In this document: one piece after another, positions 1,327 to 19,998 of the stretch
Layout: the number at the start of each line of letters is the position of its first letter
How positions within the stretch are numbered: the first letter of the stretch is position 1
From: Christensenella sp. UBA1782
GTDB lineage: Bacteria; Bacillota; Clostridia; Christensenellales; DTU072
DNA: 55,608 nt
NCBI GenBank assembly: GCA_002315475.1
Contig: DCGI01000050.1
Coordinates: forward strand, 139-55,746
Reading direction: 5' to 3'
Notes under the pieces: model-generated
Databases searched by the model: none
Told to the model about the DNA's origin: nothing
The model's input: the letters and a program-made list of their open reading frames with translations, nothing else
Position numbers and translations under genes: made by a program

Positions 1327-2294
1327 TTATTTCATCATGCAACGGATGATTTCCTGAACTTCGTCTTGTAACCATTTCGGTTCGATGATTTCGCAATCGG
1401 TACCGAAGCCCAAAACGAATTTGACGGTATTATAGTGATAGTGCATATCACATTCCAACATCGTATGGTTTTGGTCGATGGGCGTTACGATTTGATGCAA
1501 GCCGTACTTGTATTCCTGCACGTACATGGCGGGTTTTCCGGTAAAGCAAAGCTTGATATGAATCCATTCGTTACTGCCTTTATCGGCACGATTACTCCAA
1601 TCTCCTCCATGCTTCAAGCCGTTTTCGTCCAAATAATCCCGTTCGTTATAGGAAAGTTTTATCTGAAATTTCTCATTCGTAACCGAAAATTTTTGAATAC
1701 GGTTGAGTTTGAAATACGCAAAATTTTCGAAAGATTCGCAATAACCGATGACAAACCACGCATTGTTGTGCATAAAAAGTCGGTACGGATGAATTTTTCT
1801 CGTACGCACGACGTTGTCGTTGGACAAAAAGTCAATCGTGATTTTTAACTTTTGTTGAATACATTGTTCTATCGTTTGGTACCGTTCTTTCAGCTCCTCA
1901 CTGCTCATGGCAAGGGTAATGCCGGGAATAATGAAAGTTTCCTGAGAAATCGGCAACCGCTCGATAGAAGAAAAAATACGGGAAATCGCCATTTGAAAGA
2001 CTTTGGCATCCAAAAAATCTCCCCTCGAAAGAAGGTAGTCGGTACCGATTTGTAATACTTTTTTTCTTCGTTACTCAGATTTAACGACGGAATCAAAGAA
2101 CCTTGTTCCAGTTTATAACCGCCGTATTTTCCGGGTATACTGACAATATAATACCCCGCTTCTTCCAGTTCTTTTTTATACTCAATCACGTTACGCGGAT
2201 TGGTTTCCAAAAGCTCTGCCAATTCGGTACACTTATAAACCCGTCCCGAACGCAGAATCTGGAGCATTTGAATACACATTGACGCTTTGCCCAT
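1327..2294 (-). pseudogene. HTH-WYL domain transcriptional regulator (BrxR/CapW-like class), reading frame broken at an A7 run
   Basis: The N-terminal ORF (1905-2294) has a winged-HTH 'YKCTELAELLETNPRNVIEYKKELEEAGY'. The C-terminal ORF (1327-2013) has a WYL core 'HPYRLFMHNNAWFVIGYC...FKLNRI' plus a C-terminal extension. The frames join if the coding-strand A7 (plus-strand T7 at 2059-2065) were A8, giving '...NEEKKVLQIGTDYLLSRGDFLD...'. Confidence 0.75.
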
Positions 2295-4403: not shown

Positions 4404-5240
4404 TTATTGATAGCGTGCCTCTTGATAAAGGCGTCTGTTTGCTTCGGTGCGGAACATGACCGCCAAAGATACGTCGTCCCCGTATCCGGTTTTTTCACCG
4501 AGCCGAACAATCCAATCGTTTACGTTTTCTCTCTTGCCGTTCGCCAATTCCGTATAAACGGGCAAGATAAAGGATTTCGCAAAATTGGGTAAATTTTGAT
4601 AGGGGTTAATGATGCCGTCGGTGCAAAGGAATACGCCGTCATAGTCGCGAATATTGTAAAAATCCACGTGAATATGATAATAAGCGTCTTCCGAACACAT
4701 GGAATAGGTATAGTTTGCCACCGTTTCGTCGCTTGTTTCCTCTAAAATCGGCGTAACCACCCCTTTCTTGACGCCGAAAATACCACCGTCTCCCAAACTG
4801 ACGCAAAGTAGGTATTTTCCCAAAATCATGGCACCGTTTAAGGTCGTGCCGTAGGCTTTGGCAGGGTTGTTCTTCAAGCGGAATTGATCACGTTCGGAAA
4901 GCATTTCGATTTCCTTCTTCCCGATGTGATTCTGTTCCAAATCTTGTTCCACCAAAGCATTCCACCGACACAGAATATCCATTTTTATTTTGTTAAGAAC
5001 CTGTTCCTTCGGCTTGCCGTACAGAACCAACGAACGGACGCTCTTAAAAGCGTCGATGATGGCTTGACAGGCAAACTTACTGCCTCTGTCGCTTCGAATA
5101 TACACGTCTGATCCGTGTCCGTCGCAAACGGCAACAATCGTCCTCGTTTCGTCATGATAGGATACGGAAAAATCCTGACAGGGTTTTCCCGTTTTTAAGT
5201 GAGAAAACCCCACGTTGGTTTTGTTAAAAAACTCAATCAT
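4404..5240 (-). CDS. PP2C-family Ser/Thr protein phosphatase (TerY-P triad component)
   Basis: PP2C motifs 'CQDF', 'VAVCDGHGS', 'LGDGG', 'LCTDGI' and 'GDDVSLAV'. I place the start at the internal ATG (5240), which overlaps the upstream vWA stop by 8 nt; the ORF track extends to 5303. Confidence 0.85.
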   Translation of the reverse strand: MIEFFNKTNVGFSHLKTGKPCQDFSVSYHDETRTIVAVCDGHGSDVYIRSDRGSKFACQAIIDAFKSVRSLVLYGKPKEQVLNKIKMDILCRWNALVEQDLEQNHIGKKEIEMLSERDQFRLKNNPAKAYGTTLNGAMILGKYLLCVSLGDGGIFGVKKGVVTPILEETSDETVANYTYSMCSEDAYYHIHVDFYNIRDYDGVFLCTDGIINPYQNLPNFAKSFILPVYTELANGKRENVNDWIVRLGEKTGYGDDVSLAVMFRTEANRRLYQEARYQ

Positions 5241-6024
5241 CCTGCCACTCCCACGAGTCAATATCGTCGCTGATAGTCTGCTGTATTTGTTGTCTGATAT
5301 CATTTGTCACCTGATTTTCCGTATTTTGACCGATTCCCTGCGTTGTCGTACTGTCGGAGGACTTGACCTTTGAAGCCGTCATCACGATAATCTTAATAAT
5401 CTTTTCCAAAAGTTTTGCATCAAAGCAAGTAATGACGTCTCCGTTTTCACCGACGAAATCTCGAAGTACCTGCACCGTTCTGCCGTCATTTAACTCAATA
5501 GCGATGCCGTATCGAATTGCTACCTTAAACCATGGGAGTTTGTTCAAAATTTCCATTTCTTCCGTCAACGGCCACTTTGTCGGGTGCCCGTCCGTCAATA
5601 ACAACACGATGGGTGCCACGCCTCCGAAATCGGGCATAATGCCGCCTTTCGCTTCCTTTTTCAATAAGTCGGCAAGCTGCAAATAAGCCGTATGTAAATT
5701 GCTCCAACCACCGGCGCGGATATCCTTAAAATCAAATTCTTCCACCGCTTTCATCCTATCGTGATTCAACAAGAACGCTTCGGTAGAATAGGTGATAACC
5801 GTAAGATAAAAATCCACGTTGACGTTTTCGTTTTGTAAATCCGTCAAATACTGTTTGATGTCGTGAATAGCGTGATTCACTTGACCGATGCGTTCTCCCC
5901 GCATACTCGTGGAACAGTCCACCATGAGGATGACGTTCAAGCGTTGTTTAGCAATCTTCTCATCCATTCTGTCGGGTTTCCAAACAGGTTTTTCCGTATC
6001 GTTTCCTTGTATCGTTTCTGCCAT
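5233..6024 (-). CDS. TerY-like von Willebrand factor A (vWA) protein, copy 2
   Basis: MIDAS motif 'VDCSTSMRG' plus 'LLLTDGHPT'. S/T-rich then acidic Trp-containing tail 'SSDSTTTQG...DSWEWQDD'. Paralogous to 6206-6919. Confidence 0.85.
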   Translation of the reverse strand: MAETIQGNDTEKPVWKPDRMDEKIAKQRLNVILMVDCSTSMRGERIGQVNHAIHDIKQYLTDLQNENVNVDFYLTVITYSTEAFLLNHDRMKAVEEFDFKDIRAGGWSNLHTAYLQLADLLKKEAKGGIMPDFGGVAPIVLLLTDGHPTKWPLTEEMEILNKLPWFKVAIRYGIAIELNDGRTVQVLRDFVGENGDVITCFDAKLLEKIIKIIVMTASKVKSSDSTTTQGIGQNTENQVTNDIRQQIQQTISDDIDSWEWQDD

Positions 6025-6205: not shown

Positions 6206-6919
6206 TCAGTTCCAACCGTCCTGTACTTCTTCGTCCAGCTTTTGAGCGATTTGTTGTTGCGTCGCTTGATTGTTGTCGGTTACTGCGGTATTGGTAGAAC
6301 TCGACTTTGCCTTCGATGCGGTGACGGCAATCACGCGAATGATTTTCCGAAGTGCTTCCGCCGTATATACCTGCAAAACGGTTTCCGGATTGCCGGTAAA
6401 GGACGTCAGAATGTTCATGGCTTCGTCACTCTTGATAAAAATCGCCAAAGCATACCGCAAAGCCGCTTTGAACCAGCCTCTCTTCTTTAAGGCGTTTAGG
6501 TGGGCTTCCCAATCGGGACTGGTCGGCAATCCGTCCGTCATCAAGATGAGGATGGGCGCCACACCGCCGAAGTCGGGCATTTGACCGCCGTCCGCTTGCT
6601 TCATCAGGCACTTTTCCAGTTTATCGAAAGCATCGGAAAGGTTGGTTTCTCCCTCGGGAGCAAGATCTGCCCACTTAAAATCGGAAACCGTCTTTCCTTC
6701 GTTATAAACCCACGATGCGTGATCGCTGAACTTTAACGCGTGAATCTTGATGATTGCTTCCGATGTGTCTTCTTGGATTTCGGGCATGATACTCATTACG
6801 TCACGAATGGCGTTATTGACCGCCCCCAACTTTTCTCCGCTCATCGAACCGGAATTATCGATAATAAAAATCAAATTCAGTTCTTGCCGTACGATACCGT
6901 TTTCTTCTCTGTCTGCCAT
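6206..6919 (-). CDS. TerY-like von Willebrand factor A (vWA) protein, copy 1
   Basis: MIDAS motif 'IDNSGSMSG' plus 'ILMTDGLPT'. Tail 'KSSSTNTAVTDNNQ...EEVQDGWN'. The start lies 2 nt after the kinase stop. Confidence 0.85.
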   Translation of the reverse strand: MADREENGIVRQELNLIFIIDNSGSMSGEKLGAVNNAIRDVMSIMPEIQEDTSEAIIKIHALKFSDHASWVYNEGKTVSDFKWADLAPEGETNLSDAFDKLEKCLMKQADGGQMPDFGGVAPILILMTDGLPTSPDWEAHLNALKKRGWFKAALRYALAIFIKSDEAMNILTSFTGNPETVLQVYTAEALRKIIRVIAVTASKAKSSSTNTAVTDNNQATQQQIAQKLDEEVQDGWN

Positions 6920-6921: not shown

Positions 6922-8223
6922 TTACTCAATCTCTCCTTGTGTTGTATTGTTGAATTGTATTGTTAAATTGCGTGCCAACAGTATGACGCCGTTTCCCGCA
7001 AATATTTTTTCCTTACCCGTTACGTCTCTGACCACCACTTCCTGCGGAAGAGCCAAACGCAATCCCCAAAGGCTCGGGTTGTTCTTGTTGGAGATTACCC
7101 TGCCGACCGGCGTGCAGTAATCGTCGGAATACTTATCTAAGTGATGCCTGAAGATTTCTTTGCCCAAATCCAACACGATACGGTGTCTGCCCACGTGCAA
7201 AACGCATACGTCCTTCGTCGGTTTTCCGCAATAGGGACAAATCTTATTCGGTTGTTTTTCTTCAAAGCCGTAGATATAGTCGCTTTGGCAATAGGGACAG
7301 GACATAACCTCGTCACGATATTTGCAAAGGAACTTATTCCACTCGATTTCCGTCGTTCTGGCGTTTTCTCGGTCGGTTAAGCCGTCCACAAAGGTACGAT
7401 GAAACGCCTCTTTGATATAAATCGGAATGGAGAGCCATTTCTTGATCAAGGCGGTATGATAGCCGCGAATCGGTCGATTGCTCCTGTCCGTTTTATGATA
7501 AACGAATACCGGATTCTTGCCGTACATTTCAAAAATGGCTTGTTCGTCCATTATCTCGTAGTCTTTGAGCTTTTCCCCTTCAAACGGTCTTCCTTTACAC
7601 AGTGCCATAAACAATACGACAGCCAAAGAGAACCGATCGGAGTGGGTATCGGGATTCATTTCTTTCCGAACCACTTCGGGTGCCATAAACTTGATGATGC
7701 CCTGAATACCTAAGTTGTTCTTGTCGGCGGTAACGTTATCGTTGTCGCAAATCAGCAAATCGCCGGTATTGGGATCCAAGAAAAAGCCGCCGTCGTTCAA
7801 GTCTTGATAGGAGTATCCTTTTTCGTGCAACTTCTTAAACGATGTACACAGACTGATGCACCACTTCACCATGATAAACTTGTTCTTAAACTGTGCCTTT
7901 TCGTCACCGTTGACGTACTTGGTAAAAGAAACATAGTTCTGCGGACGCAGATCCATCAAATAGCCGACTTTACCTTCGTATTCGAAATACCGTTTCGGCC
8001 ACAAGAAGGTTTCGGCGGGGCTGCCGCGATCGATCAAACTCTTCAAGTTCTTTTTGAACTCGGGTTTGACTTCATTGATGTACACCTTCAAAGCATACTT
8101 TGCGCCGTTCATGGAAACAAGATACACCTCGCCTTGCCCGCCTGCCCCCAAAAGGGACTCTACGACCAACTTGGTACCGTCCTCCAATGCAACAACTTCG
8201 TTCTGTTTTAGTTTCATTTGCAA
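6922..8223 (-). CDS. Ser/Thr protein kinase with C-terminal zinc ribbon (TerY-P triad kinase)
   Basis: Gly-loop 'LGAGGQGEVY', 'YALKV' Lys, degenerate catalytic loop 'YQDLNDGG', 'ICDNDN' in place of DFG, and 'FMAPEV'. These are followed by 'CPYCQ...CPYCG'. The ATG at 8217 is an alternative to the TTG at 8223. Confidence 0.85.
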   Translation of the reverse strand: MQMKLKQNEVVALEDGTKLVVESLLGAGGQGEVYLVSMNGAKYALKVYINEVKPEFKKNLKSLIDRGSPAETFLWPKRYFEYEGKVGYLMDLRPQNYVSFTKYVNGDEKAQFKNKFIMVKWCISLCTSFKKLHEKGYSYQDLNDGGFFLDPNTGDLLICDNDNVTADKNNLGIQGIIKFMAPEVVRKEMNPDTHSDRFSLAVVLFMALCKGRPFEGEKLKDYEIMDEQAIFEMYGKNPVFVYHKTDRSNRPIRGYHTALIKKWLSIPIYIKEAFHRTFVDGLTDRENARTTEIEWNKFLCKYRDEVMSCPYCQSDYIYGFEEKQPNKICPYCGKPTKDVCVLHVGRHRIVLDLGKEIFRHHLDKYSDDYCTPVGRVISNKNNPSLWGLRLALPQEVVVRDVTGKEKIFAGNGVILLARNLTIQFNNTTQGEIE

Positions 8224-8283: not shown

Positions 8284-8904
8284 CTATCCTTGAATGCTCT
8301 TGGCGCCCAGACAAAGGGTAACCTTTTCGACCATCTCTTGATTCTTGGATGCTTCGCAATGCTTTTTGATGGCAATAAGGTTCTTAAAGAGTTTTTCGGT
8401 ATGTTCTTGCAACACAAACCGTTCGTTTTCCAAACTCTCTATCGAACCGCCGTTATGTTGTAACGAGCAGATTCTGTCGATCGACTTAAAGACCATCTTG
8501 TAGAGCTTTAAGGTCTTGTCTTTGTCGGGAGAGTATTCGAGGATGCTCTCGTCGATAACCGGCAAAGCCGAAAGAACAAAGTCGGCTGTTTCCAACGCTT
8601 TTACGCCTTTCGCGTGGTTTTTCGACAGCTCACGAATGGCTTCGCCCCCTCTTTGCATACCTTCCTTCTTGATGGAAGATATGACGGCGGTCTTGGTATC
8701 GACGTACTTAAAGTGAATCACCGCGTCGATGTCGTCCTTGTTCAGATACGTGCTGTTAATCAAATCCCTGCAAGTGACGGTTTTCAAAAACATGGGATGC
8801 ACGATGGGAACGGGTAAATCCACGAAACCGATTTGATCCGAAATGGTTCCCGACGTCTTTTTGAAAGACTTGATTTCTTTACTTTGTAAAAATTCTATCT
8901 TCAT
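8284..8904 (-). CDS. small protein resembling the N-terminal clamp / clamp-helix region of RNA polymerase beta-prime (no Zn ribbon, no catalytic domain)
   Basis: Segments match E. coli RpoC (recalled) by eye: 'GFVDLPVPIVHPMFLKT' vs 'GHIELASPTAHIWFLKS', 'FVLSALPVIDESIL' vs 'ILTVLPVLPPDLRP', and 'TLKLYKMVFKSIDRICSLQ...ENERFVLQEHTEKLFKN' vs '[20 protein letters not shown]...[17 protein letters not shown]'. RBS GAGAGG. Confidence 0.6.
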   Translation of the reverse strand: MKIEFLQSKEIKSFKKTSGTISDQIGFVDLPVPIVHPMFLKTVTCRDLINSTYLNKDDIDAVIHFKYVDTKTAVISSIKKEGMQRGGEAIRELSKNHAKGVKALETADFVLSALPVIDESILEYSPDKDKTLKLYKMVFKSIDRICSLQHNGGSIESLENERFVLQEHTEKLFKNLIAIKKHCEASKNQEMVEKVTLCLGAKSIQG

Positions 8905-8943
8905 ACTGTACCTCTCTTAAGTATAGATGTTTTTTCCTTTGTC

Positions 8944-9168
8944 TTAGACAAAATCGTTATTGTTTATCGATAAACCGTATCGATGTCCGACTTGTGCCAA
9001 ACCTCCCTGTCCTGCGACGTCGCCTTCGTGCTCGTCGCTTTCTTGCGGCAGATTTGGATTTTTGAAAAACAGTGGATGCACTTCGAAAAAGGGAAACTCC
9101 GTAAAACCGACTTGTTCCTAAACAATTCCCGATACTTTCCTAAAAAACGGTAAGTCTTTCGCGTGCAA
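8944..9168 (-). pseudogene. decayed third copy of the beta-prime-clamp-like gene (in-frame TAG, truncated)
   Basis: The minus-strand frame reads '(TTG)HAKDLPFFRKVSGIV*EQVGFTEFPFFEVHPLFFKN...'. It aligns with 'SKEIKSFKKTSGTISDQIGFVDLPVPIVHPMFLKT' of 8284-8904. The TAG is at 9118-9120, and similarity is lost after the VHPLF motif. Confidence 0.4.
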
Positions 9169-9224
9169 TCAATCGACTTTTATTTGGTACACCTCTCTGT
9201 TTTCCATTGTAGACCAATTCCGTA

Positions 9225-9761
9225 TTACTTGTCAATAGGTAAACCTCCTTTTTTTTCGTTTTTTCCCAATTCTTTGACAAGGGAGCAAAGACTTTCCTGC
9301 AATAACGCTTTTTCGGTCTGCCGAATGGCTTCGGGTATCTCCATGCTCAGGAGCAGTCGCAAGCGGTTACTGCGGTTCAAGACGCGTACGTAAGCTATTT
9401 TCAAAGTTTCGGGATCGGCGTCTCGGGGATACTCCTTTTGGTAGAGTACGGGGAAGGAATGGAGCACGTACTTCTCGGATAACGTCGTCTTGCCCTTGTA
9501 TTGCGCCCATAATTCCGTTACGCCGTCCGTTCCCGTATTGCCGCTCGGTAAAACCTTTCGGTAGGTTACGATCTTTTTCAGTTCCGTCTTTTTCATTTGA
9601 CTCCGACAAAGCAGCTCTTTGCACTCGTCCGATTCCAAAAACAGCGGATGAATCATCGCTATCGGGAAAAGGATGTTGCCGCCTTCCCCTCGAAGAATGA
9701 GGGTAGGATCCGTAATAATTCTTTCCGTTCGTTCGTTCCTCTTTTTTTCTGCCATAAGCAC
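9225..9761 (-). CDS. small protein resembling the N-terminal clamp / clamp-helix region of RNA polymerase beta-prime, paralog 2
   Basis: Matching segments are 'GNILFPIAMIHPLFLES', 'YVLHSFPVLYQKEYP' and 'TLKIAYVRVLNRSNRLRLLLSMEIPEAIRQTEKALLQESLCSLV' (close to RpoC '[16 protein letters not shown]...[13 protein letters not shown]'). GTG start at 9761 or ATG at 9755, after a GAAGGAG RBS. Confidence 0.6.
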   Translation of the reverse strand: MLMAEKKRNERTERIITDPTLILRGEGGNILFPIAMIHPLFLESDECKELLCRSQMKKTELKKIVTYRKVLPSGNTGTDGVTELWAQYKGKTTLSEKYVLHSFPVLYQKEYPRDADPETLKIAYVRVLNRSNRLRLLLSMEIPEAIRQTEKALLQESLCSLVKELGKNEKKGGLPIDK

Positions 9762-9773: not shown

Positions 9774-10328
9774 TTATTTCTTGTATATTTTTCGTTTCCC
9801 CGTCCGCACGTCATAAATGCTGATCGGGAACAATTCGAATCTTGCAAATTGTTCGATGGCTTTATAGACTTCCACGATTCTTTTCGGCGTCGGCAACCCT
9901 TCGGTAAAGAGGTAGACTCCTTTTGCCAACTGATCGTACACCGATGCGCTTATATTCGTCTGCATAACCGACAAATTCAAAGAAATCTCATAGAGTGCTT
10001 CCGGCGTCGCCACGGCGTAACGGGCATCCGCTCTGCCTTTATCGTCGTATCTGTCATAGTCATCGTTGATTTTGACAATTTGCGGAACCAACTCTTGCAC
10101 GATATTTTCGGCATTTACCTCTCCCTTCATATACTTTTTCCCGCTTTCCGTAAGGACTTGAAAGGTTAAAAAGTCCCCCGAGGCGGCAAACATGGCGTTC
10201 TGTCCGGCGATTTTGGCAATGTGTAAATTATCCTCCAACAGATAATCGGCTTCCGACATATCACACAATTCTTCTTTGCTCGATACACCGATATAGGTCG
10301 TTTCGTCGTCTTTTATGGCTACAAACAT
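9774..10328 (-). CDS. proteasome-beta/HslV-like Ntn-hydrolase-fold paralog 4 (no Thr1; predicted inactive)
   Basis: Start reassigned to the ATG at 10328 ('MFVAIKDDETTYIGVSS'), with GGGAGG upstream, 2 nt after the preceding stop. Same length and N/C-terminal strand pattern as the three upstream paralogs. Confidence 0.55.
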   Translation of the reverse strand: MFVAIKDDETTYIGVSSKEELCDMSEADYLLEDNLHIAKIAGQNAMFAASGDFLTFQVLTESGKKYMKGEVNAENIVQELVPQIVKINDDYDRYDDKGRADARYAVATPEALYEISLNLSVMQTNISASVYDQLAKGVYLFTEGLPTPKRIVEVYKAIEQFARFELFPISIYDVRTGKRKIYKK

Positions 10329-10330
10329 AC

Positions 10331-10915
10331 TTACTTTACCTCCCTTACGGTCAACGTTAAGTCCTTCGTGTTGACGGTGACGAACCTGTCGCCGATATCT
10401 TCGTAATAAGCCGAACACTTCTTAAAAATGGTTCCGAATTGTTCTTCCACGTCCTTTTCCGGTCGAATCGCCGCCAAACAAGGCGTACACATAGAAGAGA
10501 TATTCCCCACGCTGCGATACGACCGATAGCGTACCACCCCAAAACCGCTGCAGATTTCAAACAAATCCCCGTCGTGCGCTATCAGTAAAGGGGCTTCCAT
10601 GTTGCACGTTTCCTCTCTTCCCAACCAGTTTCTTTCCTTATAAAAGCGATAGACGGCGGGAAGAATGTGCGTTATTATTTGTTTGAACGTCAATTTACCG
10701 TTCTTATCCAACGGGAACAATTCGGGATGAGACAGTAACTCTTGTCCGCGACTTTCGTTGCCGTCCGGACGAGCGACCAAAACGCCTTCTTCCGTTTTCA
10801 AAATGGGCAAGACGGGCTCAAAAGAATCGTCCATCTTGCGTCCCGACGATATCCTCATGACGTTTGCTCCGAAATAAACCACGTTATCCCGTACGTAACT
10901 CAATAGTACCGACAT
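10331..10915 (-). CDS. proteasome-beta/HslV-like Ntn-hydrolase-fold paralog 3 (Ser at position 2, Asn at the Asp17 position)
   Basis: 'MSVLLSYVRDNVVYFGANV...' and a C-terminus 'FVTVNTKDLTLTVREVK' that parallels paralog 1 'FLLIDSKDLTFTEVEA'. 16-nt overlap with the upstream gene. Confidence 0.55.
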   Translation of the reverse strand: MSVLLSYVRDNVVYFGANVMRISSGRKMDDSFEPVLPILKTEEGVLVARPDGNESRGQELLSHPELFPLDKNGKLTFKQIITHILPAVYRFYKERNWLGREETCNMEAPLLIAHDGDLFEICSGFGVVRYRSYRSVGNISSMCTPCLAAIRPEKDVEEQFGTIFKKCSAYYEDIGDRFVTVNTKDLTLTVREVK

Positions 10916-11478
10916 AAATCCTCCTTTGCGTACACGACTCTCTTTTCACCCGTAACCGTATCCAGCAAAGCCAACGGATACAAGTCGTTATGCGTCTCTT
11001 TCCGGAATTTTTCGACAAAATCCATGATTCTTTCTTCGGCGGGTTTCCCTCTGTTTTCCGCTAAAACGGCATAACCGAAATCGGCGTATATGCAGTGCAG
11101 AAGGTCTCCCTTTCGTTCAAAAAGCAGAAAATCCACGGAAATATCGTAGATTTTCCCGTCGACGAACAGGGTAAGGGTATTCCTCCAAGTATCGTTTTCG
11201 AGGAATCCCGTTCGTTCGACAGTCTCTCGAATGGCAGGAATCATATCCCGTAGGATACTCTCTTTGCTCTTCGCCATTTCCCATATCGCATCATCATGTA
11301 TAAGGGCGTCGGTGCAACCGTTAAAAACGGAAAAACATCCCAGAATTCCGCCGTTTTCATTTTTCCGAATGGGCAGATTCTCGTCACAAACGTAGTCGCA
11401 TTCCGAAAGAAAATCGGTATCCCATGTGTTGGAAACGGCCAGCAACGCTCCTTTTTCCTTTTCTATACAGATAATCAT
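10900..11478 (-). CDS. proteasome-beta/HslV-like Ntn-hydrolase-fold paralog 2 (no Thr1; predicted inactive)
   Basis: 'MIICIEKEKGALLAVSNTW...' and an internal 'LRDMIPAIRETVERTGF' that parallels 'VRDIIPKMKKWLGENKL' of paralog 1. ATGA overlap with paralog 1. Confidence 0.55.
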   Translation of the reverse strand: MIICIEKEKGALLAVSNTWDTDFLSECDYVCDENLPIRKNENGGILGCFSVFNGCTDALIHDDAIWEMAKSKESILRDMIPAIRETVERTGFLENDTWRNTLTLFVDGKIYDISVDFLLFERKGDLLHCIYADFGYAVLAENRGKPAEERIMDFVEKFRKETHNDLYPLALLDTVTGEKRVVYAKEDLCRYY

Positions 11479-12044
11479 GCTTCCACCTCCGTAAACGTTA
11501 AATCCTTACTGTCGATGAGTAAAAACGGTGCGTCGACACCCGACGAATAACGGGTGGAACACCGCAATCCTTCCAAAAGTGTTTCTTCCGCCGACTTCGA
11601 CTCGTCTACGTCAAGCAGTTTCGCCGTTGCAAAATCGCAACCGCAACCGATCGCATATCGGTCGGTAATCCGTATCGTCTTCCATCTGTCTACGATAGCG
11701 TACAGTTTATCCTTCCACGCCAACAGGAAAGAATTGTTTACCGTTCCGTTTTCCTCCAACAATTTGTTTTCCCCCAGCCACTTCTTCATCTTCGGAATAA
11801 TATCCCGCACGATCAAATCTTTGGTCAATCCCTCTTCGCCTATCATGAATTCGTCTTCGTGTTGCCACAAAAGTTGCGAAACCCGCACCAAACCGGAACT
11901 GCCTATCAATAAACCGTCCCGCAGCTTGTGAATCTTCTTCGTTTCCTTCCGGGAATTGTTGCTCTTTTGCACGCCGACAGACGTCTGCGTGTCGGTTCCC
12001 ATGTACACCGTTCCGTTCCGAACTATTCCGATAATAACCGTCAT
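11475..12044 (-). CDS. proteasome-beta/HslV-like N-terminal-threonine hydrolase (putative catalytic subunit)
   Basis: 'MTVIIGIVRNGTVYMGTDTQTS...KKIHKLRDGLLIGSSG...YAIGCGCDFA' aligns by eye with HslV '[23 protein letters not shown]...KKVRRLYNDKVIAGFAGG...LAIGSGG'. Thr directly after Met, and Asp17- and Lys33-equivalents are retained. RBS AAGGAGGA. Confidence 0.65.
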   Translation of the reverse strand: MTVIIGIVRNGTVYMGTDTQTSVGVQKSNNSRKETKKIHKLRDGLLIGSSGLVRVSQLLWQHEDEFMIGEEGLTKDLIVRDIIPKMKKWLGENKLLEENGTVNNSFLLAWKDKLYAIVDRWKTIRITDRYAIGCGCDFATAKLLDVDESKSAEETLLEGLRCSTRYSSGVDAPFLLIDSKDLTFTEVEA

Positions 12045-12108: not shown

Positions 12109-13944
12109 TCATTTCTCGCTCCCTTCTTTGTAAGAAATTTCGGTGATTTGCAAAAACAATTCTTCGTCGTCCCATGCGTGCAGTCCCGCATACTCCAAAA
12201 AGGCTTCTTCCACGTTCTTTTCACTCTCTTCGCAGTAGGTTTTTCCCTCCCCGTCAAAGAACTTCAAATAGATTTCTTTGGCGGCATCGAACCCTTTTTC
12301 GCAACCGGTGCCGTATACCTCCAACACCGACAAGTCGGCAAGTGCGTACGAAAGATAATAGCAGGGAGATTCTATCACGACGTACCGCCAATAGCTTTCG
12401 TTCCCTTCCATGCCGTACGTTTTTGCGATTTCGGCAAAAGCGGTATCGTACTCGCTCTGTGGAATACTCCCCTCGTAAACCTTTCTTTCGAATTCGTCCA
12501 CGGCGCAAGCGAGCAAAATCGAGCTGCATATCGAATCCATTTGTGCGCATTGTACGTACTTATAGACACTGCTGCCGCGTGCTTGCAAAGTCTCTTGCAG
12601 ATACGTCAACAAAAGGAATTCGTCCCCTATCGACTGCATTTCCTTAATGTCGTAAGAATCGTACTCCGCACCGCAAATATCGGCAAAATAATGCCCGTAT
12701 TCATGCACGAACGTGAATAACGTGGAATAGTTTTCCCTTTCCATATATAAGATAGGCTTTTCCAAACCTTCGTTCACGTAGGTAAAAGCTCCCGCATAGG
12801 CGTTTTCTCCCGTACCGATATAGTAATTTCCCTCTTTGAAAATGTCGTTGGCACAGTCGAAAAAGTTATATTCGGATGTCGCGTTCTCCCCCATCCTTTC
12901 CAAATACGACGCAAGCGTTTCCGAAGCGATGACGGAGGTTTCTATCGATTCCGCAAGCAACGCCGTCAAAGTACTAAGCCACGTCGGCATCCTCCCGAAA
13001 AACAATCCGATTCCGTCCCCGACTCCCATATCGGAATAGAGATTTTCGAAAAGTTCTTCGCTGTACTCCGAAAATTCCCGATAATACGGTACGATATACT
13101 CCTTCACCAACGCTTGCATTTCTTCGATTTCGGCAAGGTCTACGCTCCGTCCGTACAGGTTTTCCTGCGCGTATTGATAAAAGGTATCGTATCCGGCAAG
13201 AACGGCGTAGCGATTATTCTTTTCCACGTAATCTTTATATAAGGATAATACCTCTTCGCTGTTCGTCGGATCGGAAATTTTCCGAAACGCCCGTTCGATT
13301 TCGTTGATTTCGGACGTTAAAGCGGCTTGTTCCTGCGCTTTGTCGCCGAGCGAAAGAACGGCGTCGACGTCGTCCTGCGTCCAGCCGTCTTCCTCGCTGA
13401 AAAAGTATTCTCGGTACTCCGTTTCGTAAACCAACGGAAATAAAGAAAGGTAGTTTTCGTTATAATCGGCGAGCACCTGCGATATTTCTTCGTAATCGTC
13501 GGCGTATTCGATACAGTCCAAACAGTACCGAACGTAAGCGTACGCCTCCTGCACTTCCAAGTATTCTTGATAGCCGCAATAGCGGTCGTATATTTCTTCA
13601 AACGCTTTATTCTTTTGATACAGTTCACTGTCCTTGACAAAGCCGTCGGTGTTCTCGTCATACCGATCCGCCGCCGCAATCGCCGTCTTGACGTCCCGTA
13701 AAGCCGTAGCGATTTCCCCCTCTTTTTCTTCGTCGTACGAATAGACGAAAACGTCTTGATAGATGTTCAGACTTTCCCGTCTTGACGTATGCGGGCATCC
13801 CTCTTGCTCGCAAGAAGCCACTCGAATATAATCGTCCGCATACGAATAGCTGCAAGTATGCTCGGGTACCGTATCGAAAACGGTGCAACCGAACAGTAAC
13901 GTACACAGAACCGCACACAAAACGCCAATGCCTACCTTTTTCAT
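12109..13944 (-). CDS. lipoprotein zinc metallopeptidase, M3 (oligoendopeptidase F)-like
   Basis: Signal peptide plus lipobox 'LCTLLFGC'. HExxH motif 'FVHEYGHYF' with a downstream Glu ('DIKEMQSIGDEF'). Strong GGAGGA RBS. Confidence 0.65.
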   Translation of the reverse strand: MKKVGIGVLCAVLCTLLFGCTVFDTVPEHTCSYSYADDYIRVASCEQEGCPHTSRRESLNIYQDVFVYSYDEEKEGEIATALRDVKTAIAAADRYDENTDGFVKDSELYQKNKAFEEIYDRYCGYQEYLEVQEAYAYVRYCLDCIEYADDYEEISQVLADYNENYLSLFPLVYETEYREYFFSEEDGWTQDDVDAVLSLGDKAQEQAALTSEINEIERAFRKISDPTNSEEVLSLYKDYVEKNNRYAVLAGYDTFYQYAQENLYGRSVDLAEIEEMQALVKEYIVPYYREFSEYSEELFENLYSDMGVGDGIGLFFGRMPTWLSTLTALLAESIETSVIASETLASYLERMGENATSEYNFFDCANDIFKEGNYYIGTGENAYAGAFTYVNEGLEKPILYMERENYSTLFTFVHEYGHYFADICGAEYDSYDIKEMQSIGDEFLLLTYLQETLQARGSSVYKYVQCAQMDSICSSILLACAVDEFERKVYEGSIPQSEYDTAFAEIAKTYGMEGNESYWRYVVIESPCYYLSYALADLSVLEVYGTGCEKGFDAAKEIYLKFFDGEGKTYCEESEKNVEEAFLEYAGLHAWDDEELFLQITEISYKEGSEK

Positions 13945-14045
13945 GAGTATCTTTCCTCCGTCGTTAGTATTTTCCTTTCCGAAGCCGACCTTTTCGGAAA
14001 GAAGGGAAAAAGCCTTACGAAAAGCCTTCTCCCCCCTCTATCTTA

Positions 14046-15359
14046 TCAAGAATTCTGCATAAGTGCAACCAATTCTTGATAATCCAGCTGTTTCCTGTCT
14101 ATCAAGGCTTCGGCAATACGGGTGATTTCCTCGCGGTGTTCTTCCATAAGGAAACGCACGATCTTATCGCTTTCGGACAGAACGGAAACGACGAAATCAT
14201 GCCGTCTTACTTCGAGGGTATCACTGACACCGTAACGGCGAACCGACGACTGGAATTGACAGTTTTCATAGCCGTAGAATCCTTCTTCGCACATACCGTT
14301 GATGATTTCCTGCGCCTTGGCAAGGTCGGAAACGCAACCCGCCATACGCTTGCCGAGGAACACTTCGGTCGCGATGCCGCCCGCTATTGCCACCCGAACG
14401 GTCTGCTCCAGGCTTTCCTTCGTACTGTAGTCGTCCTTTTCGGAACGGTTCAAGATGCTACCGGTCGAGCTTCCCTGCGGAATAATCGAAGCGTTGATGA
14501 TATGCTTCTTGTAGTACAGACTGATAAAGGCGTGTCCCGCTTCGTGGTAAGCCGTCGCTTTCAGCCTTTCGGAATTGTCCAAATCAATCGTCTTCGGAAT
14601 GTCACGCAAGGTTACCCGTTTCATGGCGGAGATAATGTCGGCTGTCGTGATGGTGTCGCCACGACGCTGTACGCTGTTGATGACCGCTTCGTTGGCGATA
14701 CACTCTATATCGGCACAACTGCATCCCGCCGTATCCAGTACCAGACCTTGTATGTCGACGGAATCGTCCAACTTGATTTGACGGGTATAGTAGTCGAATA
14801 TCGCCTTTCTGTCCCCTTCTTCGGGTAAATGGAACTGCAACATACGATCAAACCGTCCCGTACGCAGGAGGGTATCGCTCAACAAACGTAAATCGTTTGC
14901 CGTAGCGATGACGATGGATTTGCCTTCCCGACCGATGGCGTCGATGGCTTGCATCAGTATCTTTTGGGTGTTCAGGTTTTCGGGAACGTCGTATTGCCAC
15001 TTGTCATACCCCGCAAACTTATCGATTTCGTCGATGAAAATGATGCATTTGCCGATTTCGTGTGCCTGCGCAAAGGTATCCACAATCAGCTTATCGATAT
15101 TGACGCCCTTCGTCAAGCCTTCGGCTTCGCTCACTTCCAACAACGGTACCTCGCTCGCCTTGCTGATGGCTTTCACCACTTTGGTCTTGCCCATGCCCGG
15201 TTTGCCGTACAACAAAAAGCCTTTCGGGAAGCGAGCGCCGCTCGCAAGGTATTCCTCTTCCCGAATCAACATGTCCACTACGCCCATGGCGTCCTTCTTG
15301 ATACTTTCGTAGCCGGCGATTTCGTTAAAAATTTCTTGTATTCTTTCTTGACTGTTCAT
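14046..15359 (-). CDS. soluble FtsH-like protease: AAA+ ATPase fused to an M41 zinc peptidase, no transmembrane segment
   Basis: Walker A 'GKPGMGKT', Walker B 'IIFIDEID', SRH 'TANDLRLLSDTLLRTGRFDR', M41 'AYHEAGHAF'. The N-terminus starts directly with the AAA module. Confidence 0.85.
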   Translation of the reverse strand: MNSQERIQEIFNEIAGYESIKKDAMGVVDMLIREEEYLASGARFPKGFLLYGKPGMGKTKVVKAISKASEVPLLEVSEAEGLTKGVNIDKLIVDTFAQAHEIGKCIIFIDEIDKFAGYDKWQYDVPENLNTQKILMQAIDAIGREGKSIVIATANDLRLLSDTLLRTGRFDRMLQFHLPEEGDRKAIFDYYTRQIKLDDSVDIQGLVLDTAGCSCADIECIANEAVINSVQRRGDTITTADIISAMKRVTLRDIPKTIDLDNSERLKATAYHEAGHAFISLYYKKHIINASIIPQGSSTGSILNRSEKDDYSTKESLEQTVRVAIAGGIATEVFLGKRMAGCVSDLAKAQEIINGMCEEGFYGYENCQFQSSVRRYGVSDTLEVRRHDFVVSVLSESDKIVRFLMEEHREEITRIAEALIDRKQLDYQELVALMQNS

Positions 15360-15366
15360 GCTTCGT

Positions 15367-16521
15367 TTACTCCTGTTCTTGCATTTGATTGGTCGCTTTC
15401 ATGTAGTTTTCCATTGCTTTTACGTCAAATTCCGCAATGGAAGTTCGGACGGTTTTCCCCGCCTTTTCAATATCCGACATGCCGATAAAACCGGCTTTGC
15501 CCGTTTCGATTTCTCGCTCGATGGCAAACATTTTGGCACATTCGCACATTTCAACGGTATCCGCTCCACTGTAGTTTTCTGTCAGGCGAACCACTTCCTC
15601 CTCGCAGTAGTCCTCTCCCATCGGTGCTCCGTCGAACGACAGAGCAATCAATTTCTTCCTTGCTTCTTCGCTGGGTAACGGTACGTATATCTTCCTGTTG
15701 AACCGTCCCGGTCGCAAGAATGCGGTATCCACGTCCCATGGACGGTTGGTCGCCGCAAGTATCACCAAATTATGATTGCCGTTCTCTTCGAATCCGTCCA
15801 TTTGGTTGAGTAGTTCATGCACCACTCTGTTCATCGCTTCGTTCCCTTCGCCCGAACGTTTCATGCCGATAGCTTCAAACTCGTCGAAGAAAATAATGGC
15901 TTTTCCGCTCTGACGAGCCTTATCGAACAGCTCTTTGATGTTTCCTTCGCTTTCGCCGAACCACTTGGAAAGCAGGTCGGAACACTTTATCGGAAAGAAA
16001 CTGGCTTGCATATCCTTGGCGATGGCTTTGGCAATCATGGTCTTCCCCGTACCCGGCAAGCCGTACAGCAGGATACCCCCTCCCGTCTTCTTGTTGTACC
16101 GCTTATATAAGGACGGGTACATGAACGGGTAAACTACCTGTCTGCGGATTTCCTCCTTCACGTCCTCCAAACCGGCTACCCTGTCCATAGCGTTTTCCTT
16201 CTTCTTGAACATTTCGCTGAACTCGTTGATGGGTATATTCAGTCCCATGGCGGTGTCCTCGATGTTGGTAAAAAGGGTTTCGTAAGACGAAGCGTCCGAC
16301 AAATCGACACACCTGTCCAACAGTTGTTTGGCCTTATCGATAAAACTCGGACGCAACTCGAAAGCAACGTTCCTTGCGATGTTCAAAAGCGTCCCTACCG
16401 CACAAACGATGGCTCGCTTTCCCGTTTCTTCGTTACGCAGAGAAAACTGCTCCAAAGCATACCGATAAAACTTCAAAAAGGTCTCTTGTTCTTGTTTGAT
16501 ACAATCTTGTTTACGATTCAT
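15367..16521 (-). CDS. classic-clade AAA ATPase (Vps4/katanin/CDC48-like) with an N-terminal helical (MIT-like?) domain
   Basis: 'GILLYGLPGTGKT', 'IIFFDEFE', 'ILAATNRPWDVDTAFLRPGRFNR'. About 115 aa of helical N-terminal region. Confidence 0.85.
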   Translation of the reverse strand: MNRKQDCIKQEQETFLKFYRYALEQFSLRNEETGKRAIVCAVGTLLNIARNVAFELRPSFIDKAKQLLDRCVDLSDASSYETLFTNIEDTAMGLNIPINEFSEMFKKKENAMDRVAGLEDVKEEIRRQVVYPFMYPSLYKRYNKKTGGGILLYGLPGTGKTMIAKAIAKDMQASFFPIKCSDLLSKWFGESEGNIKELFDKARQSGKAIIFFDEFEAIGMKRSGEGNEAMNRVVHELLNQMDGFEENGNHNLVILAATNRPWDVDTAFLRPGRFNRKIYVPLPSEEARKKLIALSFDGAPMGEDYCEEEVVRLTENYSGADTVEMCECAKMFAIEREIETGKAGFIGMSDIEKAGKTVRTSIAEFDVKAMENYMKATNQMQEQE

Positions 16522-16697
16522 TCATGCTCCTATGTTGTAAAAAAAAATGGTTGAAAATTTGCAAAAAACTGCAAAAAATGAGAAAGAAAAGGGTAAAATA
16601 TATACGGAAACCGGAGCGTCAAAAAATGCTCCGAAAAAATACTCCTCTCTTACCCTTTCTCCTCTATTTGTAGTTCCCTCTTACGGAACTTCTTTCC

Positions 16698-17057: not shown

Positions 17058-17190
17058 TCGTAAAAAAATCCTCCTATAGATTTTACGGTGTGGTGTTTTT
17101 GGTTAAAAAAAATCGGATTTATTGTCATCCGACAAGGTAAAGTACCCCTTCTTTTTTCTGGGTACCAAGGCACGACTATAAAAAAAATTT

Positions 17191-17219
17191 CATCCCCTTA
17201 TACTATGTATAAGGGGATG
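17191..17219 (-). terminator. Strong (bidirectional) rho-independent terminator after the polymerase-like gene
   Basis: 12-bp perfect stem CATCCCCTTATA / TATAAGGGGATG with a 5-nt loop, and T-runs on both strands. Confidence 0.75.
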
Positions 17220-17283: not shown

Positions 17284-19998
17284 CTATCTCTTCCCGAAGG
17301 TATAGCCGCAAAGGTTGACGGTGCCGTTCGGCATCTCGTACAGCTCGGGTAGCGAAGTCGTCCCCTTCTGCAAAAGGGTACGCACGAGGGGATTGTTCTC
17401 CTGCAAAATCGCCGAATAAAACAACCAGTCTTCCTCTTGTTGTTTTTCGCACCACTGAACGAGCAGACGTATTACGTTTTCACTGCCAATCATTTTTTGA
17501 ATCTCGATATCCCGTTCCTGACGCATTTGCATAATATCTTCTTGGATGATTTCCTGTTCGGACTCCGCAAGATTACCTAACAAAAAGTACTTGAACTTTA
17601 GTTTCTTTTCATAACGACGGTATATTTTCATGATTGCGTTCTTGCGGGCGTAGTCGGTCGAGGTCGTCTTTTGGGAAACCTCTCCGAATAGGGCGGATAT
17701 GGGTAGCAACTCCAATTTACCCTCTCTCCCCTCCCGTAAATCGCAACGGTCATTCACGCAACTTAAAATCAAATCCATCGGCGTTTTGTACAGGCGAAAC
17801 GTACCGGATACGCCCCGATGATTTTTCTTCGCCTTTATTTCTTCGATGCATTGGAAAAATTGCGGTTTTGCCAAAAAGTCATCCTTGATGTATTTTTCGC
17901 TTAACTCTTTCATGATTCCCTTGCAATCCACCCCGAAGTTTCTTTTCGCCTTATCGATTTCGATACCCGACAGAACGGAGAGGATACAAATATCGTGATA
18001 GATTTCCCGGCAGAAATCGCTATCTTCCGGCTTTCCCGAAGAGAGTTTTTCCCACAGAATACCGTTGAGCCGTTGCGAAAGGTTGACGATTTGCCCGATG
18101 GCGTTTTCACTGTTATAGATATCCACTTGGGTTAAGTCTAACGTTTCGCCGTCTTTTTCGTCAATGGCGCAGACGGGGACTTTGAAGAGGTCGTAATTCT
18201 TTTCGGCATTACGAACCAACGTCGGATCGGAAGTCATCAACATGGTATCGGAGTCGTAGTCGCATCCGTTCAAACGCTGTTGTACGTTTTCGCCGACGGC
18301 GTTGACGCAAACGATATTGTTCCCTAAGTCAAAATACTCCCAAACGTCGTCTTTCGTTTTGTTGGTGACAAGATACAGATTGCCCATCGTGATATGGGGT
18401 GAACGGGCGCAAAGGATTTTTTCTCCGTCTTGAAAACGCATACACCGCACTTCCCCTTTTTGCAGAGTGAGGTTTTCGGGAGAATACGTTCCGATGACCG
18501 ACCGTAACAATTCGGGGCCGTTGCCGAACAGGGTGGCGTTGGTACCGTCGACGAGGAAATGCCCTTTTTTCATCATTTCTTTCATCGACCGTATTGCCGT
18601 TTCCCGAAAATTATAATATAATCGTGTTTTACGGAAACCTTCGTTGTGCCGAATGAGGGAAAAAATCAATTGGGAACGGTTAAGCAGACTATCTTCCCAC
18701 GCTACGGTGTCCGTCGACTCCTGTTCCTCTTTTTCCCGATTGGAGAGGTTGGAATAATAATAACACATGACGGACGGATCTTCGTTCATTTGTTTGATCA
18801 GGTTAAAATTCCCTTCCAAAAAGGAATAAATGCTTTCTTGGTCGATTTGTACGGTGTTCAATAATTGATAGCTTGTACTTACCATCCTTCCGTTAAAAAA
18901 CTTCGTTCTTTTATCGGTCTTAACCACGCCGAAGGTATCGGTCACGTTATTTGCCCAGTTTTGTATGTTTTCCGACGAAAGTTTCGTATCCTTGCAAAAT
19001 TTCAGATATTTCAAACTACTCGGCGTGGTAATCATGACGATTTGATGAATATCGGTCGCCAGCGTCACGCCGCCGTTTTCGGTCAAAACGGATAAATCGG
19101 TGATGCCGTTATCGGCAAACCATTTTTGAATTTTGGTACGGAAGGCACAAGACTTGAAAAACTTATTCCGCAAAAGCATCATGTGCTTATCGGCGTACCC
19201 GTCTTGAAAAACGCTTTCGTCGAGGAGCGCCTCCCCGTCCCAAATGGTATTGGTTACGATGGCTTTTCCCTGCTCGGCAACGATTTTTCCGTCCTCTTCC
19301 CGCACGCTGACCACTTCTTCTTCAAACGAAGAATACCGATCGGGTACAAACAGTATACCCTCCAAAGGAATACGAACCACGCCTTTTAACGAGCTGAGAG
19401 AAAGGGCTTTATAGGCTTCCCACGTCGCCAGCTTTACGGGATTCCATTTCAAACCGCATTCGCCCCATTTTTCCATGCTCCGCAATAAAGATTTTTGAAT
19501 GAAAAGGCATTTCCCCATACGACTGCTGCCGGCACTTCTTTTATAGCGCACGTACTCGACGCCGTTTATGCAAAAACCGTTTTCGTACAGTTTTCTTCGG
19601 AGCTTGAAAACGTCGAGGAGAACCTTTCCTTTCGGTTTCTTTTCTTGCTCGGTGTCCTTGCCTTTCTTTTTCTTCTTTTGGGATACTCTTTTGGCTTTTT
19701 GTTCTTCGGTCTCCTCCACCTTTTCCCGAAGGCACCGATCAAAATCCACGTTGACGACGGCGAGGGTATACGAAAAACCCTTTTCGTCTTGAAACGAAAA
19801 CTTCTTTCGTTCTTTTTTCGCATAGATATTTTGTAATTCTACCGAGTCAAGCGACCAATCCAACACGTTGGAAAACAACGTATAATACTTCTCGTTTTTT
19901 TCGGCAGGCAGAACATACCCTTGCTCGGGATTTTCCAACGAGGATCTGACGATGTCGCACGCTTCCAGCGAGAGAATTCTAAAACTATTTTTTCCCAT
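17284..19998 (-). CDS. RdRP/YonO-like single-polypeptide two-barrel (DPBB) RNA polymerase homolog
   Basis: Collinear with hallmarks of the eukaryotic-type RdRP family. First barrel: 'NGVEYVRYKRSAGSSRMGKCLFI', 'YKALSLSS', 'IWDGEALLDESV'. Second barrel: 'ILCARSPHITMGNLYLV', then the catalytic 'NGCDYDSDTMLMT' (DYDSD at 18247-18261; compare DxDGD of RdRPs and NADFDGD of beta-prime). Downstream: 'AIGQIVNLSQ' and 'ICILSVLSGIEIDKAKRNFGVD'. Confidence 0.7.
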   Translation of the reverse strand: MGKNSFRILSLEACDIVRSSLENPEQGYVLPAEKNEKYYTLFSNVLDWSLDSVELQNIYAKKERKKFSFQDEKGFSYTLAVVNVDFDRCLREKVEETEEQKAKRVSQKKKKKGKDTEQEKKPKGKVLLDVFKLRRKLYENGFCINGVEYVRYKRSAGSSRMGKCLFIQKSLLRSMEKWGECGLKWNPVKLATWEAYKALSLSSLKGVVRIPLEGILFVPDRYSSFEEEVVSVREEDGKIVAEQGKAIVTNTIWDGEALLDESVFQDGYADKHMMLLRNKFFKSCAFRTKIQKWFADNGITDLSVLTENGGVTLATDIHQIVMITTPSSLKYLKFCKDTKLSSENIQNWANNVTDTFGVVKTDKRTKFFNGRMVSTSYQLLNTVQIDQESIYSFLEGNFNLIKQMNEDPSVMCYYYSNLSNREKEEQESTDTVAWEDSLLNRSQLIFSLIRHNEGFRKTRLYYNFRETAIRSMKEMMKKGHFLVDGTNATLFGNGPELLRSVIGTYSPENLTLQKGEVRCMRFQDGEKILCARSPHITMGNLYLVTNKTKDDVWEYFDLGNNIVCVNAVGENVQQRLNGCDYDSDTMLMTSDPTLVRNAEKNYDLFKVPVCAIDEKDGETLDLTQVDIYNSENAIGQIVNLSQRLNGILWEKLSSGKPEDSDFCREIYHDICILSVLSGIEIDKAKRNFGVDCKGIMKELSEKYIKDDFLAKPQFFQCIEEIKAKKNHRGVSGTFRLYKTPMDLILSCVNDRCDLREGREGKLELLPISALFGEVSQKTTSTDYARKNAIMKIYRRYEKKLKFKYFLLGNLAESEQEIIQEDIMQMRQERDIEIQKMIGSENVIRLLVQWCEKQQEEDWLFYSAILQENNPLVRTLLQKGTTSLPELYEMPNGTVNLCGYTFGKR

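Follow-up and report, generated by a model that had tools for sequence, protein, structure and literature searches.

Can the part of RNA polymerase (RNAP) on which sigma factors dock exist as a protein of its own, encoded apart from the enzyme? The clamp helices of the RNAP beta-prime subunit are the main landing pad for sigma factors, NusG and several phage takeover proteins, and the question is raised by two small genes, P1 and P2, in a stretch of 55,608 nucleotides from Christensenella sp. UBA1782 (GenBank assembly GCA_002315475.1, contig DCGI01000050.1, positions 139 to 55,746; hereafter the window). A first-pass annotation had proposed that they encode two stand-alone mini-proteins mimicking the clamp region of beta-prime (RpoC), and both open reading frames (ORFs) lie on the minus strand exactly where it had placed them:

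8284..8904, minus strand: P1, an ORF of 206 amino acids, stand-alone beta-prime clamp-like protein with more diverged clamp helices and an additional C-terminal helix
9225..9761, minus strand: P2, an ORF of 178 amino acids, stand-alone beta-prime clamp-like protein

Both genes are intact, have ribosome-binding sites and encode reduced, free-standing homologues of the beta-prime clamp module. The Shine–Dalgarno sequence of P1 is GAGAGG, 6 nucleotides 5' of the ATG, and that of P2 is AAGGAG; gene callers start P2 at the ATG at 9755, two codons in, which gives a protein of 176 residues. The two proteins are paralogous (BLASTP E=7e-9, 25% identity over ~150 residues) and basic, with isoelectric points (pI) of 8.5 and 9.3 for the pair.

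Single-sequence, exhaustive profile, profile–profile and predicted-fold tests agree, and we therefore conclude that P1 and P2 are homologous to the clamp segment of beta-prime, E. coli residues ~100-310, comprising core strands and the clamp-helix coiled coil. When searched against the PDB, P2 matched every bacterial beta-prime at E. coli positions 265-307, the clamp helices (best E=4e-4). It also matched the NCBIfam rpoC models (3.4e-6) and positions 256-298 of one PHROG of 1216 positions. P1 matched the Pfam family PF04997 (RNA_pol_Rpb1_1) at profile positions 234-291 of 312 (E=1.1e-3, 18.9 bits). The comparison with this family, which the first-pass annotation had suggested, supported the homology in part: the P1 match falls on the clamp-helix positions, but it stays under the gathering score of 39.7 bits, and P2 had no Pfam match. 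A profile of P1 and P2, searched against 1.84 billion representative proteins, retrieved only 21 others at E<1e-3, all 21 of which carry PF04997.

Profile–profile alignment was performed with hhalign against a reference of genuine beta-prime N-termini (54 sequences, anchored on the real E. coli rpoC). P1 and P2 together matched this reference with a probability of 97.9% (E=3e-12), P1 alone with 92.9% (E=3.7e-7; residues 16-192 to E. coli 93-325) and P2 alone with 94.5% (E=8e-8). The aligned pairs included GNILFPIAMIHPLFL/GHIELASPTAHIWFL, GTDGVTEL/GAEAIQAL, YVLHSFPVL/MILTVLPVL and the clamp helices. Independent profiles run across the ORFs of the whole window matched P1 and P2 alone. The segment matches originally put forward (GHIELASP..HIWFL, GAEAI, ILTVLPVLP and the clamp helices) are borne out by these results. 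The proposed alignment to RpoC residues ~1-310 stands for E. coli ~100-310, on the evidence of profiles, hhalign and fold, and fails at the extreme N-terminus of P1. There, the likeness of the first ~20 residues to IKIALASPDMIRSWSFGEV is a chance match, no better than that of 79 out of 500 shuffles, in a region where the pLDDT (the predicted score of the local distance difference test) is below 50.

AlphaFold produced confident models of both proteins, with a pLDDT of 82.0 and a predicted template modelling score (pTM) of 0.79 for P1, and 83.1 and 0.77 for P2. The 50 best Foldseek matches listed per model in the PDB were all RNAP beta-prime chains, for P1 and P2 alike, at E values of 1e-5 to 7e-4 and query-normalised template modelling (TM) scores of about 0.5-0.58 over ~210 columns. 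The structure prediction that the first-pass annotation had called for hence yields a beta-prime fold for both proteins. Because the modelling alignments included beta-prime relatives, the fold evidence is partly dependent on the sequence evidence.

Most of the genuine subunit is missing, as had been noted at the outset for the Zn ribbon, the insertion ahead of the clamp helices and everything downstream, and the hhalign alignment confirmed each of these absences. No Cys cluster in P1 or P2 aligned with the four-Cys Zn ribbon at E. coli 70-88, and both proteins lack the insertion found at E. coli ~190-235. The first 30 residues, compared with the beta-prime N-terminus for the zipper segment, were no different from shuffles. 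P1 and P2 end just past the hairpin, and the catalytic double-psi beta-barrel with its NADFDGD motif and all downstream parts are gone. No further ORF in the window matched the beta-prime N-terminal profiles, and Pfam scans of the proteins of the surrounding island revealed no other RNAP domain. Since they fall below the Pfam threshold, lack the Zn ribbon and the catalytic domain and have no partner subunits nearby, P1 and P2 are homologues of the clamp module and not beta-prime subunits; without Zn ribbon and catalytic parts, they are not polymerase subunits in the usual sense.

The clamp helices are retained in both of these truncated homologues, as originally claimed, and were located by alignment and in the AlphaFold models:

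8350..8523, minus strand: helical hairpin of P1, residues 128-185, clamp-helix equivalent
9264..9413, minus strand: helical hairpin of P2, residues 117-166, clamp-helix equivalent

The clamp helices of P2 are 44% identical to E. coli 265-307, compared with 12-29% in the other aligned segments, and those of P1 are 26% identical. At the positions of E. coli R275/R278/E295/Q300/A302, P2 carries R/R/E/Q/S, with R130, E150 and S157 at 275, 295 and 302. P1 has S141, E161 and H168 at these last three positions and so keeps the sigma-contact set in part only. R278, E295 and Q300 do not vary among P1, P2 and 17 members of a phage family described below, and the hydrophobic residues of the hairpin tip are retained in P2 (LLLSMEIPEAI). 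In genuine beta-prime, the clamp helices are the docking site of sigma-2 and of the phage sigma-like protein gp36 (PMC12276001), and mutation of R275, E295 and A302 disrupts holoenzyme formation (PMC8321222). Residues 100-309 of E. coli beta-prime, made as a separate fragment, serve as a reagent that binds sigma70 (PMC2715106).

Our preferred reading, to which we give a probability of roughly 45%, is that P1 and P2 are polymerase-free docking modules that would bind sigma-type proteins within a conflict island. It is favoured because the similarity of P2 is concentrated in the clamp helices, where the sigma-contact residues are kept, and because the E. coli 100-309 fragment can bind sigma70 unaided (PMC2715106). 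TerY-P features, protease and AAA+ genes, a WYL regulator and chromosomal flanks, all described below, suggest the conflict-island setting. The clamp-helix face of P1 and P2 would bind a protein that normally docks there on RNAP; the likeliest candidate is a sigma-2 domain, carried by a sigma factor or by a phage sigma-like factor. P2 would be the competent binder, and P1 a diverged and perhaps specialised copy; its specificity may be altered, given S at position 275, H at 302 and the extra C-terminal helix. Such modules could, as a trap or bait, catch incoming phage factors that are sigma-like or target the clamp, and the capture might be read out by a kinase/phosphatase switch or end in transfer to proteases. 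They could also form a controlled sink for host sigma, arresting transcription. In either form, the function of P1 and P2 may resemble that of anti-sigma factors through mimicry of the docking site. The decoy or bait and the sigma/NusG-sequestrator roles put forward in the first-pass annotation would both agree with these data.

The remote matches to P1 and P2 include a coherent, unnamed family of stand-alone beta-prime-N proteins of 316-424 residues, forming about 18 clusters at 90% identity (e.g. P0010, P0025, P0027 and P0031). All come from metagenome assemblies, and PF04997 is their only annotation. Their build is a beta-prime N-terminal segment followed by a C-terminal helical extension, without the Zn ribbon and without the ~190-235 insertion. 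In hhalign, P1 and P2 matched this family with a probability of 99.4% and E=1e-20, compared with E=3e-12 for genuine beta-prime. An hmmsearch with the family profile (alignment A3) detected P2 at 1.9e-15 and P1 at 5.4e-9, and in tblastn P1 directly matched one family member. By sequence comparison, P1 and P2 are closer to this stand-alone family than to genuine beta-prime.

The contigs that carry the family are phage- or prophage-like, with integrase, lysin and DNA ligase genes and HicAB pairs. In 5 of 5 loci, the family gene is followed on the same strand by a gene for a ~375-residue protein with an Xre-type helix-turn-helix (HTH):

L006, 10001-12473: beta-prime-N / Xre-HTH cassette
L008, 2963-5293: beta-prime-N / Xre-HTH cassette, with HicAB pairs on both flanks
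L010, 5808-8140: beta-prime-N / Xre-HTH cassette
L011, 2693-5025: beta-prime-N / Xre-HTH cassette
L012, 10001-12354: beta-prime-N / Xre-HTH cassette

This two-gene phage or prophage cassette encodes a ~400-residue beta-prime-N-like protein lacking the Zn ribbon and then the ~375-residue Xre-HTH protein, which carries an additional ~300-residue domain of unknown nature and had no informative match in the PDB. Searches of annotated phages with a family member returned only host rpoC or contaminant fragments, and no full-length copy was found in annotated phage genomes. No small analogue was found in BFVD, and there was no match for P2 in phages by tblastn, for the island in phage genomes by megablast or for P0007 in viral contigs. 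PHROGs, PADLOC and NCBIfam yielded no functional family for P1 and P2 apart from the beta-prime-like matches. Free-standing clamp modules are a recurrent theme, of which P1 and P2 are a further-reduced offshoot of the phage family. The search with the P1 and P2 profile also brought up metagenomic beta-prime-like proteins of unusual architecture (P0008, P0014 and P0015). These odd proteins comprise one of 877 residues, with Zn ribbon, clamp and a degenerate catalytic region, and beta/beta-prime-like fusions of 865-1277 residues, which hints that other non-canonical beta-prime paralogues may exist.

P1 and P2 lie in an island of ~20 kb, all on a single strand, between Fe-hydrogenase/NADH-dehydrogenase and fucose-isomerase/amidohydrolase genes; with these flanks, the island is chromosomal. 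In the order of transcription, its first part encodes a CPCC-domain membrane protein, a YonO-like polymerase followed by a strong terminator-like hairpin, an AAA+ protein, an FtsH-like AAA+/M41 protein, an M3-like protein, four HslV-like proteins and P2. The second part consists of a promoter-like site, P1, a kinase, two von Willebrand factor A (vWA) proteins, a PP2C phosphatase, two unknown proteins, an HTH protein and a WYL/WCX protein. The features are:

17284..19998, minus strand: YonO/RNA-dependent RNA polymerase (RdRP)-like two-barrel polymerase of 904 residues, motif NGCDYDSDT (phrog_8308, 6.6e-89)
17191..17219, minus strand: intrinsic-terminator-like hairpin with a 13-bp stem and a T-run, ~65 nucleotides past the YonO-like gene
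12109..16521, minus strand: M3-oligoendopeptidase-like protein (611 residues), FtsH-like AAA+/M41 protein (437 residues) and second AAA+ protein (384 residues)
9774..12044, minus strand: four paralogous HslV/proteasome-beta-like proteins of ~190 residues (HslV/proteasome matches 1.1e-3 to 5e-3)
9206..9235, minus strand: sigma-70-type promoter-like site TTGACA-18-TACAAT at the 3' end of P2, 11 of 12 consensus positions, a consensus match only
6922..8223, minus strand: TerY-P-type Ser/Thr kinase with a CPYC-x16-CPYC Zn ribbon (Pkinase 1.8e-14)
6206-6919 and 5233-6024, minus strand: two paralogous TerY-like vWA proteins, both with the metal-ion-dependent adhesion site (MIDAS) motif DxSxS
4404..5303, minus strand: PP2C phosphatase (PP2C_2 2e-32)
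1327..2294, minus strand: HTH protein (129 residues) and WYL/WCX protein (193-228 residues) at the 3' end of the island, candidate regulator

The HslV-like string lies directly upstream of P2, separated by 13-18 nucleotides depending on the P2 start chosen. Only the first of these proteins (11475-12044, start MTVIIGIVRNGTVYMGTD) has kept the N-terminal Thr, which the other three lack. From this set, one may suspect a heteromeric proteasome-like particle made of one active and three inactive kinds of subunit, encoded next to the M3-like peptidase and the two AAA+ proteins. The promoter-like site would start a P1-kinase-vWA-vWA-PP2C transcript with a leader of ~290 nucleotides, for which no Rfam match was found and whose folding is not unusual (z=-1.4). 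There appear to be two transcription units, with P2 at the end of the protease-rich string and P1 at the head of the kinase/vWA/PP2C unit. Within the leader, at 8953-8984 and 50-80 nucleotides 5' of the P1 start, lies a 21-nucleotide overlapping palindrome of the ATCGATAAAC...GTTTATCGAT type, a possible operator for the HTH/WYL regulators of the island. The latter are encoded by separate, slightly overlapping ORFs, where the usual form is a single HTH-WYL-WCX regulator.

The kinase gene begins 60 nucleotides downstream of P1. Its product has atypical catalytic motifs (YQD for HRD, and DND at the expected DFG); it retains the Gly-rich loop, the conserved Lys and APE, and carries ~90 residues of unknown nature past the Zn ribbon. 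The two vWA proteins (VWA 5.6e-10 and 3.4e-8) have the MIDAS motifs DNSGS and DCSTS. A TerY-P triad is defined as a TerY-like vWA protein, a PP2C phosphatase and a Ser/Thr kinase fused to a C-terminal Zn ribbon, encoded in one gene cluster (PMC11090510), and the kinase, vWA and PP2C genes downstream of P1 fit this definition. At E<=0.01, PADLOC gave no family match for the PP2C phosphatase or for the one vWA protein scanned. Kinase-based searches of viral and metagenome contigs for related TerY-P islands returned no match. At the right border of the island (21508-23333, plus strand), two overlapping ORFs share the L-fucose isomerase between them, one of 286 residues (N1 and part of N2) and one of 329 residues (the remaining N2 and the C domain); the split is a frameshift, a pseudogene or an assembly error.

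The YonO-like polymerase weakly matched an SPbeta-like phage at the place of yonO. The relatives of its gene point to a gut Clostridia member as the probable source of the window. We surveyed the surroundings of such relatives at 86 loci, which comprise 6 Clostridia metagenome-assembled genomes (MAGs) and 80 metagenome contigs, the majority from human gut, and together hold 6264 ORFs on 1.2 Mb. YonO/RdRP-like genes are common in gut Clostridia contigs, and the sole recurrent neighbour was an FtsH-like AAA+ protein, present at 13 of the 86 loci. This pairing with a soluble FtsH-like AAA+/M41 protein recurs at L015-L019 and in the window (14046-19998), and the two genes are adjacent in 4 of the 6 MAGs. 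At L015, which is a MAG, the polymerase/AAA+ pair adjoins a different module, composed of an SNF2 helicase, a MoxR-type AAA protein and a DUF2201 vWA-peptidase.

Several points weigh against the docking-module reading. No orthologues of P1 and P2 were found in an indexed set of 5.8 billion proteins or in the exhaustive search of 1.84 billion, which returned remote beta-prime relatives only. The two genes are orphans of a single organism, present on three contigs that agree at 99.9% identity, so that no ratio of nonsynonymous to synonymous substitution (dN/dS) is available for P1 and P2. Purifying selection can thus not be shown, nor can a conserved link to the triad and the proteases. Identity between the clamp helices of P2 and a surface that hardly varies in genuine beta-prime is only 44%, and R275 and A302 are gone from P1, so that the specificity of binding may have changed. 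The operon structure was read from consensus scans for promoters and terminators, and the PADLOC models recognised neither the triad nor the mini-proteins as a known defence system.

Other explanations of P1 and P2 have been considered alongside it. They could be phage-derived takeover genes, anti-sigma-like or competing with RNAP, that are of viral origin and stranded in a degenerate mobile element, serving the element and not host defence. Their nearest relatives are on phage and prophage contigs with integrase, lysin, DNA ligase and HicAB genes, the YonO-like polymerase of the island is typical of SPbeta-like phages, and the AAA+ proteins have PHROG matches. However, the island and its surroundings yielded no integrase, no structural genes, no tRNA and no repeats on the flanks; the genes close by are of the TerY-P and WYL kinds usually seen in host conflict islands; and the Xre-HTH protein that constantly accompanies the phage family is absent. 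We regard a viral takeover function as unlikely. The tip of the clamp helices is bound by the NGN domain of NusG/Spt5 and by RfaH, and the mini-proteins might instead act on an elongation factor, sequestering or recruiting NusG or a paralogue of it in place of sigma. RfaH-bound RNAP entries occur among the PDB fold matches and P2 keeps the hydrophobic tip residues LLLSMEIPEAI, but the best-conserved polar residues are the sigma-2.2 contact set and no NusG-like gene was detected in the island; we consider this improbable. The unannotated proteins of the island contain no detectable sigma-like or NusG-like domain. It is also conceivable, with small odds in our estimation, that P1 and P2 are dominant-negative mimics that bind the beta/beta-prime surfaces packing on the clamp module and poison RNAP assembly, or that they bind nucleic acid like the lid and rudder. 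Both proteins are basic and retain clamp core strands besides the hairpin, whereas they lack, or have in shortened form, the Zn ribbon, lid and rudder, and the core segments are poorly conserved relative to the hairpin.

That P1 and P2 are functionless, decaying relics of a beta-prime-like gene would agree with their orphan distribution, and there are no divergent orthologues in which selection could be measured. Against decay stand two intact ORFs with ribosome-binding sites and confident models of the same fold for proteins that share only 25% identity. The latter combination implies long divergence under structural constraint, and we see very little chance that the genes are relics. The first-pass annotation had also raised the possibility of a detachable clamp for the YonO/RdRP-like polymerase, to which P1 and P2 would be accessory subunits. 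The polymerase gene lies on the same strand of the same island, 7.5-8.4 kb away, and YonO-type enzymes have no clamp domains (PMC5467207). Yet none of the 6264 ORFs at the 86 loci matched the P1/P2, phage-family or genuine beta-prime N-terminal profiles at E<0.1, and two fecal phage contigs and the SPbeta-like phage, all with YonO-like genes, likewise had no beta-prime-like ORF. Only the FtsH-like AAA+ protein recurs beside the polymerase, a terminator-like hairpin follows the polymerase gene, and a single YonO chain is both active and processive (PMC5467207). With 0 of 86 loci carrying a beta-prime-like gene, and with the hairpin after the polymerase, the idea of a YonO partner was rejected and keeps hardly any probability. 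The 86 loci also contained no relatives of the island kinase, vWA, PP2C, HslV-like or M3-like proteins. Because the survey was negative and the neighbours differ, the island is best described as a mosaic in which the mini-proteins are not a conserved polymerase accessory.

Returning to the docking-module reading, a broader version of it can be imagined, in which bacteria and phages have repeatedly excised the sigma-docking module as a free-standing bait and, in this island, the capture of phage takeover proteins that are sigma-like or target the clamp, or of host sigma, would be coupled to a TerY-P switch and a heteromeric HslV-like/AAA+ protease. As a whole this is speculative and rather doubtful. 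If true, it would represent an 'integrated decoy' logic against transcription takeover, so far undescribed in prokaryotic immunity. A free-standing docking pad would by itself be a new route to control or monitor transcription while leaving the polymerase untouched, either as an anti-sigma factor acting by docking-site mimicry or as a decoy sensor like those of plant immunity. The unnamed phage family, with its about 18 clusters, means that the principle may reach beyond one island. The idea is directly testable, as P2 is small, is predicted to fold alone and is the counterpart of a fragment that binds sigma70 in vitro. In line with the first-pass view that such mini-proteins are undescribed, we found no description of free-standing clamp-helix proteins in the literature, of which our coverage was incomplete, so that earlier priority is possible.

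Among known systems, the TerY-P triad (PMC11090510) is represented directly downstream of P1 by all three components, with MIDAS motifs and Zn ribbon. TerY-P systems as described have no beta-prime-like component; in this island the vWA protein is duplicated, and PADLOC does not call the system. With the N-terminal clamp module of beta-prime (PF04997), P1 and P2 have in common the core strands, the GAEAI helix, the LPVLP strand and the clamp-helix coiled coil, in which P2 keeps R275 and E295. In contrast to genuine beta-prime, they are just 178-206 residues long, with a shortened lid and without rudder, zipper segment, Zn ribbon, ~190-235 insertion or double-psi barrel, and they are not encoded with beta, alpha or omega. 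Split beta-prime subunits (cyanobacterial gamma/RpoC1 and jumbo-phage fragments) likewise carry the N-terminal region as a separate polypeptide and are among the fold and sequence matches. These fragments, however, keep the Zn ribbon and NADFDGD and assemble with RNAP subunits, whereas P1 and P2 have neither and no partner subunits nearby.

The phage stand-alone family is likewise free-standing and has the deletions of the Zn ribbon and of ~190-235 in common with P1 and P2. Its N-terminal W.NTN...SNGEV segment and its ~150-residue C-terminal helical extension are absent from P1 and P2 (alignment A4), and its ~375-residue Xre-HTH partner has no homologue in the island, where the neighbours are TerY-P and protease genes. 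P1 and P2 are therefore relatives of this family and not members of it. With anti-sigma and sigma-displacing proteins such as phiEco32 gp79, the proposed outcome would be similar, namely control of the sigma that reaches RNAP (PMC12276001), but the known anti-sigma factors have unrelated folds and are not copies of the RNAP docking surface. A close parallel is provided by the E. coli beta-prime 100-309 coiled-coil fragment of the Burgess laboratory, which covers nearly the same segment and folds and binds sigma alone (PMC2715106). That fragment is a laboratory construct of genuine beta-prime, whereas P1 and P2 are natural, much-diverged genes.

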